A stretch of DNA of 11,016 bases from Pseudomonadota bacterium. GTDB taxonomy: Bacteria; UBA10199; 2-02-FULL-44-16; JBDRGF01. The notes beneath the pieces are model-generated. The model saw nothing but the letters and a program-made list of their open reading frames with translations. It was not told the origin of the DNA and did no database searches. A program made the translations under genes and the position numbers. The stretch's first letter is position 1; every line of letters begins with the position of its first letter. Below are positions 1-11,015 of this stretch, piece by piece. Location: the NCBI GenBank assembly GCA_043818055.1, contig JBDRGF010000056.1, positions 1 to 11,016 of the forward strand, in the 5' to 3' direction.

Positions 1-134
1 TGCACCTTCGCTGCGGAGGGCTTCGACACCCGGATTACTCCGACCTGTCGCCTCCTTAGCTACATGTCGTATGGACAATTCACATGGTAAACTCCTTTCA
101 GCTTACAAGTCTGACCAGATTTATCCTGGCGCAC
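1..134 (-). mobile_element. 5' end (domain I start) of a group II intron, IIC-like architecture; the rest, including any RT ORF, lies beyond the left edge
   Basis: The minus strand from 134 reads GTGCGCCAGGATAAATCTGG..., matching the GUGYG 5' splice consensus. Successive hairpins follow: GTAAGCT-GAAA-GGAGTTTAC, CATGT...ACATG, a TAGCTAA linker, then GGAGG-CGACA-GGT-CGGA-GTAA-TCCG-GG-TGTCG-AAGC-CCTCC with a GNRA tetraloop. This matches the order of subdomains IA/IB/IC. The GTGCG also interrupts a REP-like palindrome where its GATGAC end would be. Confidence 0.8.
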
Positions 135-191
135 CATCCCTGCGAAGGCAGGGATCCAGGAAGATACTATTATATATGGATCCCCGCCTAC

Positions 192-322
192 GAGATTGTG
201 TCGTAATTGGCTTTTGGTGTCATCCTGAACGTAGTGAAGGATCTTAAGCGTTTGAAATAACAAGATTCTTCGTTTTACTCAGAATGACATTATATACAAA
301 ATCTCAATTGCGACACAGTCTC
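192..322. mobile_element. 131-bp non-autonomous element (MITE) with IS1182/IS5-like terminal inverted repeats
   Basis: TIRs GAGATTGTGTCGTAATTG (192-209) and CAATTGCGACACAGTCTC (305-322) are 16/18 complementary. They are flanked by a TAC direct repeat (189-191, 323-325), and there is no transposase inside. The family assignment is from recalled similarity of the ends only. Confidence 0.75.
218..289. repeat. Internal palindromic repeat pair (GTCATCCTGA...GAAGGATCT / AGATTCTTC...TCAGAATGAC type)
   Basis: TGTCATCCTGAACGTAGTGAAGGATCTT (218-245) and AAGATTCTTCGTTTTACTCAGAATGACA (262-289) are imperfect inverted copies located inside the MITE. Confidence 0.7.
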
Positions 323-606
323 TACGCGAGGATGACAGGGAATGGGAATGGCAATTGTAACTTAATCGGACAACGGGGATATTTGTAAATTTTTACATTT
401 TCTAATCGATCCTTTACGATATTGATATCTGTACTCGTCCAACCCTTTGAAAAAATAGCTACATCAATATCGGAGGTTTCGTTAAAGTTACCCGTCGCTC
501 TTGAACCAAAAATCACTATTTTTTCAACTAGTTTATATAACAGAACAATCTCGATTATCCTATCCACGGTCGATCCATTTAAACCGCATTTTTCACAGTA
601 AGGCAT
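322..606 (-). pseudogene. Minimal nucleotidyltransferase (MNT/Pol-beta-like), probably C-terminally truncated
   Basis: It has the IVIFGSRATGNFNETSDIDVAI motif (GS...DxD). After DRLENVK the sequence lacks the expected third-Asp strand and terminal helix and runs into repeat DNA. No HEPN partner follows. Confidence 0.65.
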
Positions 607-3431: not shown

Positions 3432-3485
3432 GTAGGGGTAAGCCCCTGTGCTTACCCGCGGGCGACCACAGGGGGTCGCCCCTAC
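3432..3485. repeat. GTAG REP doublet (REPIN-like)
   Basis: GTAGGGGTAAGCCCCTGTGCTTACCC followed by the inverted copy GGGCGACCACAGGGGGTCGCCCCTAC. Confidence 0.85.
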
Positions 3486-3487
3486 AA

Positions 3488-4237
3488 TCATTGTATCAAC
3501 TCACAAAAACTATCATTCATATCATCTCTAATCCCAAAACGTGTTAAAGCAAAATCATATTTTACAGGATCGCTCGACTCAATTCTCCTAAAAAAATCTG
3601 TTATCTCCTCAGCTGTTCTAATATCAGCTGCTTTTCTTTCAGTCATCTCAAGCTTTCGTGAGATGCGGTGCATATGCACATCGAGCGGCACGATGAGTTT
3701 GGACGTGGGAATTTCATTCCAACCACCGGGATCGACAGCATCAGACCGCACCATCCATCTCAGATACAAGTTCAACCTCTTGCACGGGCTCTTCTTAAGC
3801 GGGTCTGGAAGAAGGGTGGATAAATTATGTTTGCCCGCCTTTTTAAGTTCATGAACAAAGTAAACTAACCCGTCATTCAAAGACTCCCTTTTGCAATAAC
3901 CTTCACAGAAGAGCTTCTCAAGAGAGCCATAGTTTTTCACTACCTTTTTTATTCCGCAGATCAGCGCTGAAATTTCCTCGCCTGTAGTAAATCGATGTTT
4001 GAAATTTAAGAGATGTTTTTTTGAGGCATCGAGCCTTTTCAGAACATGGGACACGCTTTTGAGTATTTGAGCCACCCTACCGTAGGCAAGCGCTGATGCG
4101 ATGAGCCCCACGACCTCGCGATCGCCGGCATTATCATAATTATACAAAAATTCGAGTGGATCGGGATGCACGAATTCCCGCTTATTGTATTTCGCATAAA
4201 GCCTGTTGAGAGTCTTTTTATCTATCTTTGCCATCAC
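3488..4237 (-). CDS. TIGR02757/DUF2400-family protein (helix-hairpin-helix-related, function unknown)
   Basis: DPLEFL, DREVVGLIASALAYGRV, SPCKRLNLYLRWMVR, DPGGW, PLDVHMHR and DPVKYDFAL motifs. SD AGAGG upstream; start is GTG 4237 or ATG 4234. Confidence 0.92.
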   Translation of the reverse strand: MMAKIDKKTLNRLYAKYNKREFVHPDPLEFLYNYDNAGDREVVGLIASALAYGRVAQILKSVSHVLKRLDASKKHLLNFKHRFTTGEEISALICGIKKVVKNYGSLEKLFCEGYCKRESLNDGLVYFVHELKKAGKHNLSTLLPDPLKKSPCKRLNLYLRWMVRSDAVDPGGWNEIPTSKLIVPLDVHMHRISRKLEMTERKAADIRTAEEITDFFRRIESSDPVKYDFALTRFGIRDDMNDSFCELIQ

Positions 4238-4281: not shown

Positions 4282-4321
4282 TTGGAAAAGACTAAATACT
4301 AATATCGTGCTCGGATTTTTT

Positions 4322-4383
4322 GTAGGGGAGGGTTTCAAACCCTCCCATTATAATAAGTGGGCAGGTTTTAAACCTGCCCCTAC
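4322..4383. repeat. GTAG REP doublet (REPIN-like)
   Basis: GTAGGGGAGGGTTTCAAACCCTCCC ... GGGCAGGTTTTAAACCTGCCCCTAC. Confidence 0.85.
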
Positions 4384-4406
4384 AACAGGACCCGAGTATA
4401 GCAATA

Positions 4407-5995: not shown

Positions 5996-7294
5996 TTAAT
6001 GAGATTTGAGATCTTTATGAGCAGTTTTAGCGATAGGAATCTCGTCCCATTTTGTCGTAAAGCGGTTTGATCGCTTTGAGCGTTTTATTCGCCAGTTTTT
6101 GTCCACACCCTCTGATGCAAACTGAATCGCTCCTTCGGCGATATTACGGTTGATCTCATCCAGCACCGCCATCGCTTTTCGTTTCCTATCCTCATTAGAT
6201 GGATCGTCAAAGATGTTCGTCTGCTGTTGATTCGCAGAGTGGATTCCGGTGAACATGATGCCGGCCTTCTTGTATTTGAGCCCCTTTTTGTAAATCTTTT
6301 TCAGCTCTATCAATGCATGTTCGATGAGAGTGGGAGTATAGGCCGTTGGAGTTAAGAGCTCTGCCGTGGAAAGATAAAAGAAGTTCCCCTTGTTTTTAAA
6401 GCGATCGGTCAGGATATAGACTTGGATGGATGATGCGAGGGAAGATTGAGCTCTCAGCTTTTCGGCCCCCCTTGCGATATAGGTCGAGACTGCCTCTTCG
6501 AGATCGCCAAGCTTTGTCACAGGGGAGCCAAATGATCTCGAGCATGTTATTCCCTTTTTAGAGGGCGGCTCATCTTCGAGCCCGATGCATGCCTCGCCTC
6601 TGAGCTCCAAAACAGTCTTCAACCCGACGATACTCATATGTTTTTTCACCCACGCGTCGGGCAGATCCTTCAGCTGCCGGGCGTTCTTTATTCCGTGCCC
6701 GATTAGAAACTCAGAATATTTTCTGCCTATCCCCCAGACATCCCCCACCTCAAGCGACTCGAACAGCGCATCGATATTTTCTGTGGCACTCAGATCGAGA
6801 ACTCCCTTATATATATCATTTTTCTTCGCCACCTCGTTTGCCGCTTTGGCTAGCGTCTTTGTCGGGGCGATGCCGACGCTGACGGGGATGCCCGTCCAAC
6901 GTTTGACCCTCGCCCTTATCTGCCTGCCATATTCTGTTATCTGATCCGGCGAGAGGCCTTCAAATGATAAAAAAGCCTCGTCTATCGAATAGACCTCCAT
7001 GTCGAAACCGAAGCTCCCGATGGTCGCCATCACGCGCTCAGACATGTCGCCGTAGAGCGCAAAGTTGGAGGAGAAAACCTTCACACCATGTTTTTTAAAT
7101 AGACCTTCGCACTTGAATGACGGCACTCCCATCTTGATGCCAAGTTTTTTGGCTTCGTTGGATCGGGCGATCACGCATCCATCGTTATTTGAAAGGACTA
7201 CGACGGGGACCCCTTCGAGAGAAGGGTCAAAGACCCTCTCGCAGGAGACGAAGAAATTGTTGCAATCGATAAGGGCGAAAAGCGTATGTAGCAT
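5996..7294 (-). CDS. umuC: Y-family DNA polymerase V catalytic subunit UmuC
   Basis: [44 protein letters not shown] and DVWGIG motifs, plus the C-terminal W...RS.RFTT.WDEI motif. Located downstream of umuD. Confidence 0.96.
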
Positions 7295-7373
7295 GTGGCA
7301 TGTAGCATGTGGTAAAAAACTTGTTAAACGAGCTTTTCCTACATGCTACATGCTACATTCTACATGCGCTTTT
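7278..7373. repeat. 35-bp inverted repeat built from tandem heptamers (CATGTAG / CTACATG)
   Basis: The left arm AAAAGCGTATGTAGCATGTGGCATGTAGCATGTGG (7278-7312) matches the reverse complement of the right arm (7339-7373) at 31/35 positions. About four heptamers per arm. Confidence 0.9.
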
Positions 7374-7831: not shown

Positions 7832-7891
7832 GTAGGGGTCGGCCCCTGTGCCGACCCGTTATAATGGGCAACCGCTGGGGGTTGCCCCTAC
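7832..7891. repeat. GTAG REP doublet in the umuD leader
   Basis: GTAGGGGTCGGCCCCTGTGCCGACCC ... GGGCAACCGCTGGGGGTTGCCCCTAC; same subtype as 3432-3485. Confidence 0.85.
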
Positions 7892-7930
7892 AATTTCAAT
7901 AAACATGTATTTTATTTTGCGACAGTTATA

Positions 7931-7957: not shown

Positions 7958-7972
7958 TAGGAAAGTTGATAT

Positions 7973-8035
7973 GTAGGGGCAGGTTTCAAACCTGCCCCAA
8001 AAACAATTCCGGGCGGGTTTGAAACCCGCCCCTAC
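7973..8035. repeat. GTAG REP doublet (REPIN-like)
   Basis: GTAGGGGCAGGTTTCAAACCTGCCC ... GGGCGGGTTTGAAACCCGCCCCTAC; same subtype as 4322-4383. Confidence 0.85.
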
Positions 8036-8076
8036 AAAAAATCGCACATGTGATGGGGTTTAAGCAAAAAAACCTT

Positions 8077-10680
8077 TTATTCATCTTTTTTTTTGAAGGT
8101 GATTTCAACTTCAGAATGATCACCAAGAAGCAGGCAATCTCCAACGGATATAGGAATTTGTGGTGTGGAAACCTCATAATATTGACCCGACCTTAACAAT
8201 ACAGCACTACCTGATCCCATATCTGTAACAAAGAGCTTTCCATCCTGATCTACGATCAATTTTGCAGCTTGATCCGGAATTTCAGCATTGTTGAACGTTA
8301 TATTTGCATCTCCTCCAGGATTTTTACCGATGATTATCTCTCTGTCCCCTTCTCCAATTCTTTGATCTTTTTGTAATTTTCCATTTACTTTAATTTGCAT
8401 TGTAGCCACACACCTTTGCAATGACGAAGTTCTTCCAACTCCTACCGCTTGCATATTTGGAATGGTATAAGCAGCTGTTTCGGCCTTAGGCGCAGGTACT
8501 ACGCTATACTGCTCGCCAATCTGAGTTTGAGGAGGAGGAATAGCCGGCATCCTGGGTTTTGTTTTGTAAGGATCCTCGATTGGAGGCGTGGCATTCGGCA
8601 GTGTGGCCTCGCCGGGGTCTTCGGGTTCAATTTTATTTAAAAAGAGTCCACCATTATATGAAACTTCATAACAGAGGCTTCCTCCTATTGATATCACATC
8701 TCCATGTGACAAACTCAGAACGTCTGCATCTGTCATATTTTCATTAATGACAGGGATTGAGTCTGGACCTAACAATAACTGAAGACTTGTCGTCCAGCCG
8801 AAAACCCCCAGGTTTCCATCTCCCTTTCGGAAAATTGATAAAATGCTCTCTGGAGAAAAATCTTCTAAAACAAGTAAATTAGATTCTCCTTTGCGGCTTG
8901 TATCTCCAGTAACAAGAAATGATCCTTGATCGCTCAATTTAATTTCAATTTGTTCCGGCGCTGTTGCTGTCATAAAAGCGGGTAAACTGGGAGCTGTTGG
9001 AGTTGAGTCTTCTTGACCAGTTTCTTCTAAATTTGGCAAATCTTTTCTTGTAGGCGTCTCTCCCGAGCCGTTTTCTTCTCGAAGACTACCTGTAGCATTC
9101 GGTGTATTCTCACGAATTTTTGCGGCAGGAGTTCCGGGTACAGTTGTTGGTTTATTGTCCTCTTCGACTTGTGCAGGTTGATCGAAAAATGATTCTTCTG
9201 AAATATCAATCTTAAATCTAAATCCGCAGACCTCGACTATGTCACCATCAACCAGATCTAAACCTTTTGACTTGGGTGAATATTCAACTTCACGAAGGGG
9301 ATTCGTATAATCCAAATTTTCAATTTTAACAGTAATGGATGAATGAGTTGGAGTAATAAAGATGTTATATTCCTGACTATCCGAATCATATAGCACTGTG
9401 AATACTACAAAAGGGGAATCTTCTGTTTGATTATCAACAAAAACAGCAGGCAGTTCGGCGTCAGGGCAAACGATAGAGGGTCTATGGGACGAGGTTGAAA
9501 AGGCCGTCGTTTTCACAAGAAACAGACGTTCATTTCTTAACTCATCGGTCATGCCAAATGGCGCCCTTTCAAATCTAAACGTCGGTATATTTCCCGTAAT
9601 TATTTTAGGAAATCTTATTTCATCACTTTGCGCTTGTTCTGGTTGATCTGCTACAAATCGAAAGAGAGGGTGGCTTTGTCCTGCTCTTGCAGTATGTGGT
9701 CCACCATTGAGAAGACTCTTCAGATGCCTACCGGAAGCAGCAGGGGTTGATGTAAAAACGGGGTTAAACCTTGTAACCGTATATGTAAACCCTCTTCCAT
9801 CATCATCAATCTTCTGAACCTTTACTAAACCACCCCCAATTTCAAAGGTAGTAAAATGATATTTTCTTTCCTTCTCAATTTCAAAATTATCTCCCTGTTC
9901 TAATCTGGAATCACCTTCTTTTACATTTGACCTCGCTCCAGTAACCTCTTCTTTTAGAGCGAAAAAATTTCCCTCTATATCGGTTTGTATGGCGATTATA
10001 TCCAACGTATCGAAGAGAATAATCGGATATCTGCACGCTGCTAATATCTTGGGATTTACACGCCCTGTGATAAGAGAGTTGCCGGGTTTTAAATTTCCGT
10101 TTGGATCGGTATCGAATTGAAAATCAAGCGGAAGAATTTGATCTTCAGGTCCGAGAAGACATGGCCATGTTTTATTTAAATCGGGTTCTTGAGCCTTTAC
10201 TGAATCTCTATTCTGATCTATTCTATACCCAATCTTCTGACCTTGAAATTCAATATTTCCCTCTTCCGGCAGCCAAAGACCATCAATTCCGGGGGGTAGA
10301 GGATTACCATTCAATCTCACACCTTCATTCATACTGGTCAAAAGCAACCAACGGCCAAAATCCCCAACTCCGCGACATTTTATTTCACACACCCTGTTCT
10401 TATGACCGACTGTGATAACGCCATCATTGATGCTTCCACCTATACCTATCTCCGTTCCAACATTCAAACGCCTCAATGGTAGAACCAACTGAGGTTCTCC
10501 ATTGACCGAAGAAATTCCCATATTCACATCGTGTAACGGATTTACCATCCAGCCTGACCAGTTTTGAGAGGATGCGGATTTGTTACTCAATGACTGAGCC
10601 CGAGCTGGTGCACTTGGTGGATTCAATTTCACTAATGAATTTGTGCCGACACCTGTGCCTGGTAATTTTCCAATACTCAC
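8077..10680 (-). CDS. Large hypothetical protein with multiple degenerate FHA-like domains and Thr/Pro-rich linkers
   Basis: 867-aa open frame with a GTG start and SD AAGGAG. The C-terminal EIIIGKNP...LFVTDMGS...ISVGDCLLLG resembles FHA. Similar L..GD.I.I/V endings occur near aa 260-268, 476-490 and 657-673, and GVRLNG occurs at aa 120-125. Confidence 0.75.
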   Translation of the reverse strand: MSIGKLPGTGVGTNSLVKLNPPSAPARAQSLSNKSASSQNWSGWMVNPLHDVNMGISSVNGEPQLVLPLRRLNVGTEIGIGGSINDGVITVGHKNRVCEIKCRGVGDFGRWLLLTSMNEGVRLNGNPLPPGIDGLWLPEEGNIEFQGQKIGYRIDQNRDSVKAQEPDLNKTWPCLLGPEDQILPLDFQFDTDPNGNLKPGNSLITGRVNPKILAACRYPIILFDTLDIIAIQTDIEGNFFALKEEVTGARSNVKEGDSRLEQGDNFEIEKERKYHFTTFEIGGGLVKVQKIDDDGRGFTYTVTRFNPVFTSTPAASGRHLKSLLNGGPHTARAGQSHPLFRFVADQPEQAQSDEIRFPKIITGNIPTFRFERAPFGMTDELRNERLFLVKTTAFSTSSHRPSIVCPDAELPAVFVDNQTEDSPFVVFTVLYDSDSQEYNIFITPTHSSITVKIENLDYTNPLREVEYSPKSKGLDLVDGDIVEVCGFRFKIDISEESFFDQPAQVEEDNKPTTVPGTPAAKIRENTPNATGSLREENGSGETPTRKDLPNLEETGQEDSTPTAPSLPAFMTATAPEQIEIKLSDQGSFLVTGDTSRKGESNLLVLEDFSPESILSIFRKGDGNLGVFGWTTSLQLLLGPDSIPVINENMTDADVLSLSHGDVISIGGSLCYEVSYNGGLFLNKIEPEDPGEATLPNATPPIEDPYKTKPRMPAIPPPQTQIGEQYSVVPAPKAETAAYTIPNMQAVGVGRTSSLQRCVATMQIKVNGKLQKDQRIGEGDREIIIGKNPGGDANITFNNAEIPDQAAKLIVDQDGKLFVTDMGSGSAVLLRSGQYYEVSTPQIPISVGDCLLLGDHSEVEITFKKKDE

Positions 10681-10890: not shown

Positions 10891-11015
10891 AGCTGTGGAT
10901 ATGTGGGAAAGTCGATGAGGTTGCGAAGATTGTGGACAGGGGGTGGAAAACGGTCTCTTTGTTTTCCACGCCCTGTCCACAATCTTCGCGTCGACTTTTC
11001 CATATATCCACAGCT
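10891..11015. repeat. 125-bp long palindrome carrying eight DnaA-box-like 9-mers
   Basis: Outer arms 10891-10915/10991-11015 pair at 23/25 and inner arms 10923-10951/10961-10989 at 28/29, with a 9-nt loop. It contains TGTGGATAT, TGTGGGAAA, TGTGGACAG, GGTGGAAAA and their mirror copies. Confidence 0.8.

Follow-up and report, generated by a model that had tools for sequence, protein, structure and literature searches.

A multicopy group II intron, best read as class F, in the tagged arms of CGTC-type REPs

Class F of the bacterial group II introns was reportedly defined by Simon et al. in 2008. Further traits of the class in its broad sense include an alpha' at the tip of a DId3 stem-loop, an extra DId3 bulge and an EBS3-IBS3 pairing. 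The g3 member Ni.ha.I1 and the basal introns Ge.ur.I1, So.us.I2 and Pe.th.I2, in the sections of the published descriptions drawn on here (PMC3552965; PMC3753933), resemble the intron presented below in a length of about 1.95 kb, in a 5-nt domain V loop, which is a mark of IIE and IIF introns (PMC3753933), in an RT-X protein without endonuclease and in the possession of both EBS1 and EBS2, the latter two features being known in the present lineage through relatives. The difference lies in the purine-rich IBS1 and the A at +1 of the intron described here. The loci of the three basal introns are recorded as 'putative non-coding sequence' in Table S2 of Toro and Martinez-Abarca (PMC3552965), and the available part of Nagy et al. 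(PMC3753933) does not mention repeat, palindromic, tandem or periodic sites. In the same part, Ge.ur.I1-1 is described as splicing also at two additional 5' sites, 9 and 19 nt upstream, which follow variants of IBS1.

The target strategies of bacterial group II introns covered in the available part of one review are homing sites, terminators and attC (PMC4424553). Class C (IIC) introns also insert beside palindromes, carry a CGC triad and have many intergenic sites; however, they lack EBS2 and read a stem-loop, as far as described in the sections cited (PMC4424553, PMC8643678), whereas the lineage presented here has EBS2, groups elsewhere, inserts without a T-run and occupies hairpin-less arms. 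RmInt2, a class D intron of Sinorhizobium meliloti, is likewise endonuclease-less and base-pairs to the inverted repeat of ISRm17, which doubles its sites, with one per strand (PMC4615759, in part). It belongs to another class and inserts at the end of a complete IS, whereas the target here is a 27-nt non-coding REP of about 100 copies. A selfish element that lives on another is thus already known from RmInt2, which limits the surprise.

The repeat itself resembles the CGTC-1 REPs, a family that includes the dRS3 of Neisseria and is characterised, in the portion of Di Nocera et al. drawn on here (PMC3733652), by a TGTC tag, an 8-bp stem opening with AT, a 4-nt loop, a CCA tail, a dimeric arrangement and the absence of a neighbouring tyrosine transposase; that portion does not mention introns. 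REPs are known targets of IS elements, and 2 of the 9 group II introns of Pseudomonas putida lie next to REPs according to a single table row (PMC1525189, in part). No report of class F or of any other intron lineage homing into REPs was found in the literature searched, outside which most subscription papers lie.

The stretch of DNA analysed here (the window, 11,016 nt) is the entire contig C56 of a Pseudomonadota genome assembly of 166 contigs. At its start, an initial annotation had recognised the 5' end of a group II intron, which is indeed real and runs on the minus strand from position 134 to 1, beginning 1 nt past a REP hairpin. As previously read, the 5' exon on that strand is ATCCCTGC-CTTC-GCAGGGAT-G, followed by GTGCG, whose first G, at 134, is the first base of the intron. 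The remainder lies past the contig end; since the window comprises the contig in full, there is no sequence to the left in which to trace the intron. The Rfam scan that the initial annotation had proposed returned a match to RF02003 (group II D1-D4-4) at 104-6, with 41.8 bits and an E-value of 1.1e-6, which is under the gathering score of 49 but specific for group II domain I. Positions 1-134 (minus strand) are annotated, from this match and from five identical stubs, as the 5' part of domain I of an intron here read as class F-type. Among the contigs of the genome, the same 5' stub is found at five contig ends, with 100% identity over 123-134 nt, the longest stub measuring 137 nt.

The domain V/VI that the initial annotation had sought is present in the genome as a 3' stub at six contig ends. 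Among the 10 matches listed in a genome search with RF00029, these six are one and the same stub (50 bits, against a cut-off of 40), while two come from an unrelated IIC intron and two fall under the cut-off. The 3' stub folds into a domain V with a CGC triad, a CG bulge and a 5-nt loop (GAAAU) and a domain VI with a bulged A at -7 from the intron end, with a fold z of -4.5 that none of 200 shuffles equals. All six stubs terminate in CTCTAC and are followed by ACAA; the AY 3' end followed by AC, foreseen earlier, thus occurs in six of six copies and restores the repeat as ATG|ACA. The hallmarks of group II introns that are present include the GUGYG-type 5' end, the catalytic triad, the bulged A and the AY 3' end. 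The two kinds of stub are tied together not by contiguous sequence but through the restored junction and through full-length relatives matching both, such as L053, which is 74% identical to the 5' stub and 91% identical over domain V. In comparison with the 5' ends of 75 relatives, the 5' stub reaches up to 76% identity, with a median of 69%, against 55% for the IIC intron of the genome and 51% for shuffles.

This pattern of stubs is that of a collapsed multicopy element of at least six copies, whose middle was left unassembled. The identity of the stubs across the copies suggests that the intron is mobile and has been recently active or has expanded. No RT of its lineage was found in the host genome assembly. 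The 3' stub closes a frame with GLVYL-stop, as in the relative L051, and the ORF of the window's intron would end about 37 nt before domain V. Sequencing runs were also considered, leaving out those that share fewer than five words with the stretch; in all four runs examined, two of which (X1 and X3) are possibly the source of this genome, a contig passes from the intron end into ATG. Run X5 holds a 2268-nt contig with at least 1802 nt of the intron, and REP arms other than that of the window appear in X1 and X5, in the latter beside the intron on this contig. Contigs of the intron are present in two RNA libraries, which is by itself no proof of transcription or splicing. The window's intron is probably RT-encoding, by analogy with its relatives, and would be self-splicing. 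Candidates for its own 3' flank are C51 and C75. The idea that C162 is a circle with a single intron was rejected, as its two flanks pair better with the flanks of other contigs.

The RT on C30 and C23 was also rejected as the protein of this intron, being part of a separate IIC intron with its own ends (L001, C30:1-1892, minus strand; and C23). That intron encodes a 467-aa RT and sits after a hairpin and a T-run, its IIC label having been assigned from its domain V and its terminator context. An internally deleted copy of it lies on C126 near 33.3-33.7 kb. Additionally, C71 carries near 54.8-55.3 kb (minus strand) the remnant of another group II intron, which has lost most of its ORF and has a long domain VI. 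L002:1036-2571 (plus strand) encodes a 511-aa RT, preceded by a 288-aa ORF, that is unrelated to group II introns in function and might, at a guess, be a defence-type RT.

Outside this genome, the 5' stub had no match among 92 other genomes of the host's phylum or in plasmids. The domain V pattern gave no viral matches and 28 loci in named genomes, none of which is the window's intron, and the exon-plus-intron pattern occurred in none of 401 genomes in the phylum of G093. Nine viral matches to this last pattern were set aside as chance, having no intron continuation. Among the metagenome matches listed, one locus has the same stub, L158, which ends after 118 nt and matches the site on C162, and is thus not independent.

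With regard to the target, each of the five upstream exons is a CGTC-tagged REP arm that ends in ATG and in which TCGC is followed by one or two bases and then by RGRATG, and all six downstream exons start with ACAA. The insertion therefore splits the TGTC tag of the repeat, and the split of ATG|AC by the intron, as initially proposed, is seen in all six downstream flanks. The insertion site is apparently the same in every copy of the genome. In the window, the target arm spans 135-158 (plus strand) and comprises the last C of the tag, an 8-bp stem pairing 136-143 with 148-155, a 4-nt loop and the CCA tail, the first three bases of the tag lying past the intron; together with the 3' flank, it thus has the tag, stem, loop and tail of a CGTC-1 repeat. 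On the minus strand, GGGATG at 135-140 is the putative IBS1 (RGRATG at all five sites), by analogy with the EBS1-IBS1 covariation in relatives, and TTCGCA at 141-146 is a candidate IBS2, considering the TCGC common to the five sites, which on C162 is displaced by one base relative to the other four, and the EBS2-IBS2 covariation in relatives.

The REPs of the window form a dimer of the CGTC-1 kind. The partner arm (177-337, minus strand) consists of two pieces, 177-191 and 326-337, and its end reads GGATGACA at 330-337 (plus strand), in agreement with the initial reading; it is an empty target with G at +4. Between the two pieces lies a nested element (192-322) with 17-bp terminal inverted repeats (192-208 and 306-322), flanked by a 3-bp duplication (189-191 and 323-325). 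Inside it, a second TGTC-tagged REP dimer (218-289) has arms at 218-244 and 263-289; neither of these two targets is occupied, and their +4 bases are C and T. The genome holds about 97 empty REP arms and 30-31 units with TGTC, an 8-bp stem and a 4-nt loop, 26 of which end in CCA; a related, bulged subtype is also present and is home to the C162 copy. The search for a tyrosine transposase beside the REPs yielded, at the two Y1 loci of the genome, one partial motif match and no dimer. When the flanks are joined, they match intact empty paralogues over the junction, at 94% over 52 nt for the C162/C140 pair and at 88% over 50 nt for the C62/C101 pair. Insertion destroys the conserved TGTC tag of the REP family.

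The nested element at 192-322 belongs to a set of small elements with GAG-starting terminal inverted repeats, also found beside the intron on C62 and C29. They nest in REP arms and carry further REP dimers, with up to four layers including the intron, and their ends presumably resemble those of IS5-type MITEs. Adjacent to it, a nucleotidyltransferase ORF (322-606, minus strand) matches only positions 2-58 of the 93 of Pfam Polbeta, and the repeat region appears to have taken the place of its C-terminal part. Another family of dispersed palindromes, which start with GTAGGGG, forms dimers at 657-690, 3432-3488, 4320-4387, 7832-7894 and 7972-8043; each of the five intron 5' ends found in the genome lies elsewhere. 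The window also contains an inverted repeat (7278-7373) whose arms, of 40 nt each, have a short internal period and which overlaps the start of a 432-aa umuC-like ORF, an 867-aa ORF (8077-10680, minus strand) with no Pfam match at E 0.001 and, at the other contig end, a long nested inverted repeat (10891-11015) in whose sequence C94 ends as well.

Among the relatives of the intron, the 28 domain V loci in named genomes are distributed over Acidobacteriota, Planctomycetota, Wenzhouxiangellaceae and others, and 11 of them have a 5' end like that of the window's intron, while an intron-only 5' pattern was found in at least 122 metagenome stretches. From the 34 metagenome matches with at least 1500 nt past the start, 22 were used, 10 having no domain V by the pattern and 2 being incomplete. 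All 22 complete relatives measure 1899-2038 nt and encode a Y/FADD RT; in the two that were scanned for Pfam domains (L114 and L055), RVT_1 and GIIM were found and no endonuclease family. A pyrimidine is present at +1 in 20 of the 22, against the A of the window's intron.

The flanks of these homologues, collected as the initial annotation had advised, show a preference for palindromic repeats. Among 111 distinct upstream exons, 45 either are periodic or have a partner in inverted orientation no more than 200 nt away, compared with 29 of 903 control positions. By motif, 61 are arms with a 9-nt period, 2 are CGTC REPs and 48 are other, a count that is descriptive as the 9-nt-arm motif was drawn by eye from the same exons; several of the 48 also look, by eye, like further repeat types. 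The two CGTC REPs are those of L158, the same insertion as that on C162, and of L128. The location in a multicopy REP family, as first suggested, holds within this genome, in all five upstream and six downstream flanks, and the lineage as a whole reaches beyond this family, as 109 of the 111 sites lie outside CGTC REPs: the lineage favours palindromic repeats and not the CGTC family in particular. The alternative splice sites of Ge.ur.I1-1 may be the trace of a 9-nt-period arm such as most relatives occupy. Other arrangements include relatives in head-to-tail tandem (L087), a relative immediately behind the 3' end of another intron (L137) and a repeat dimer that holds a relative in each of its two arms, on opposite strands (L139). 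A subgroup starting with GTGTG (L052, L127, L143; L054, L068, L076, L161) has different targets, its exons ending in GTATG, or in GTGC, ATGC or ATCC after GGCGCA, which suggests further retargeted branches.

When domain I is aligned across 73 sequences, three of its columns co-vary, in an antiparallel register, with exon positions -2, -3 and -5. EBS1 and IBS1 form on average 5.06 of 6 pairs, against 3.86 when shuffled (n=66, kinship uncorrected), a value reached in none of 5000 shuffles, and 55 of the 66 relatives have at least five pairs. An EBS2 loop, recognised in 61 of the 68 relatives examined for it, pairs with exon positions -7 to -12, the anchored comparison giving 3.62 of 5 pairs against 2.95 when shuffled (0 of 5000, n=61, kinship uncorrected); an earlier comparison with 30 sequences had shown a weaker signal (3.9 against 3.39, 2 of 3000). 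L128, which sits in the other end of a CGTC arm, carries a matching EBS1 (CGCAAA) and EBS2 (GACAA). This covariation indicates that the relatives home by IIB-type base pairing. EBS1 lies near intron position 200, past the end of the window's stub, so that for the window's intron an EBS1 near 5'-CAUUCY is a prediction, as is an EBS2 near 5'-UGCGA.

The class of the intron was approached through the RTs of its relatives. In a quick tree of 41 rows, 33 RTs of the lineage cluster together (SH-aLRT 96), and the two g3 class F references, Ni.ha.I1 and the A. caldus intron, are their sister group (SH-aLRT 95), with the IIC, D and g1 references outside; the reference branches are long, no class E or basal class F reference is included and the careful search is unfinished. 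Class labels follow those that Toro and Martinez-Abarca give in their Tables S1 and S2 (PMC3552965, in part). L170, taken as a stand-in for g2, carries YADD and not the FADD of g2, and is thus of uncertain class. The RTs of three relatives are 42-46% identical to that of Ni.ha.I1, against 32-34% for IIC, and the 33 RTs stand apart from the IIC RT of the genome in the tree that the initial annotation had suggested, contrary to the IIC assignment. The 5-nt loop of classes E and F is found in the intron's own domain V. The window's intron is thus best read as a member of the class F assemblage, an assignment that, like the homing mechanism proposed below, rests on relatives about 70-76% identical in the stubs.

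How the intron finds its site can be weighed against these results. As IIC introns use DNA stem-loops (in the sections of PMC4424553 and PMC8643678 cited), the RNP could read a DNA hairpin and insert just beyond its foot, with a short EBS1 pairing only. Folding of the last 30 exon bases of each occupied site gave strong stems for the window (-8.3 kcal/mol) and C96 (-9.1 kcal/mol), where the intron lies exactly 1 nt after a perfect 8-bp stem, and a weak, bulged stem for C162 (-1.7 kcal/mol), which would agree with such a mechanism, as would the dispensability of EBS2 for the in vitro splicing of IIE/IIF introns (PMC3753933, in part). However, no local hairpin forms on C62 (-0.5 kcal/mol) or on C29 (-1.5 kcal/mol), the left half of the stem being replaced by the inverted-repeat end of a nested element, and since empty arms of the same hairpin-less build are present in the genome, the intron could have entered such arms unaltered. 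A local hairpin does not look required. Furthermore, the lineage is not IIC and retains a co-varying EBS2, and the genome's own IIC intron, after its hairpin and T-run, looks different. IIC-type stem-loop recognition, which the initial annotation had favoured, is thus not supported, given the class F grouping of the relatives' RTs, the covariation of EBS1 and EBS2 with the target and the two hairpin-less sites among five, and appears quite improbable; its remark that this is not terminator targeting was right, and insertions of the lineage show no T-run.

A short sequence of about RGRATG|ACAA might alternatively suffice, the bias for REPs then arising from the supply of non-genic sites and the purging of genic insertions. 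RGRATG|A occurs 2733 times in the genome, about 97 of these being empty REP arms, and outside ORFs 85 REP occurrences stand against 311 others. The longer RGRATGACAA has 110 empty sites, 57 of them inside ORFs, and 31 of the other 53 are REP arms, so that with purging five occupied REP arms out of five would have a p of about 0.07, and the counts alone are no proof of a longer target. The A at +4, which all six downstream flanks have but which is present in 36 of the 97 empty arms (p about 0.003-0.007; the three empty arms of the window have G, T and C), also favours this reading; it might, as a guess, reflect a contact with the protein. Nevertheless, the TCGC that the five upstream flanks share at the IBS2 position, the covariation of EBS2 in relatives and the enrichment of the relatives in repeat arms over control positions make it unlikely that the short sequence is all that is read. 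Least probable of all, and only marginally credible, is that one or two insertions were multiplied passively by duplication of a composite repeat carrying the intron. The REPs do lie within nested, mobile-looking elements, and the C62 and C29 flanks are alike over the last 17-20 upstream bases, as are those of C101 and C162 over the first 17-18 downstream bases, which indicates paralogy and means that the sites are not fully independent; yet the occupied arms belong to at least three subtypes and have unrelated outer flanks despite their identical stubs, and further arms are seen in other sequencing runs. Recognition of the site by RNA–DNA base pairing, rather than by the shape of a hairpin, is most likely.

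We therefore consider it likely, with good though not full confidence, that this intron belongs to the class F assemblage, encodes an RT that lacks an endonuclease, has been active recently and retrohomes by base pairing into the ends of tagged REP arms. Its excised RNA, of about 1.95 kb and bound to the RT/maturase, would pair with RGRATG through EBS1 and with the TCGC just 5' of IBS1 through EBS2, reverse-splice between the G and the A of the tag's complement and then be copied into DNA. A replication fork would probably supply the primer, as has been demonstrated for introns of class D. Each strand of a REP dimer would carry one site, and about 100 arms, mostly intergenic, would provide the intron with many low-cost sites. 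The lineage would live in palindromic repeats and alter its EBS to suit the repeat that it occupies, and the window's intron looks like a retargeted branch of this repeat-homing lineage, tuned to CGTC REPs.

A broader reading is held more tentatively, with somewhat less than even confidence: this widespread class F lineage could be a specialist parasite of palindromic repeats that jumps between hosts, rewrites EBS1 and EBS2 for each abundant repeat family (arms with a 9-nt period, arms with a 7-nt period and CGTC REPs) and may exploit single-stranded or cruciform DNA at replication forks. A lineage at home in dispersed palindromic repeats, whose guide loops are retuned to them, offers a natural series for the evolution of EBS/IBS specificity, with a testable prediction in the EBS1 near CAUUCY, and its repeat-living habit could account for the unusual alternative splice sites of Ge.ur.I1-1. 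As a compact element without endonuclease, the intron is also a candidate for integration at multiple harmless intergenic sites. If the broader reading is true, it would represent a target strategy of bacterial group II introns beyond single homing sites, terminators and attC.
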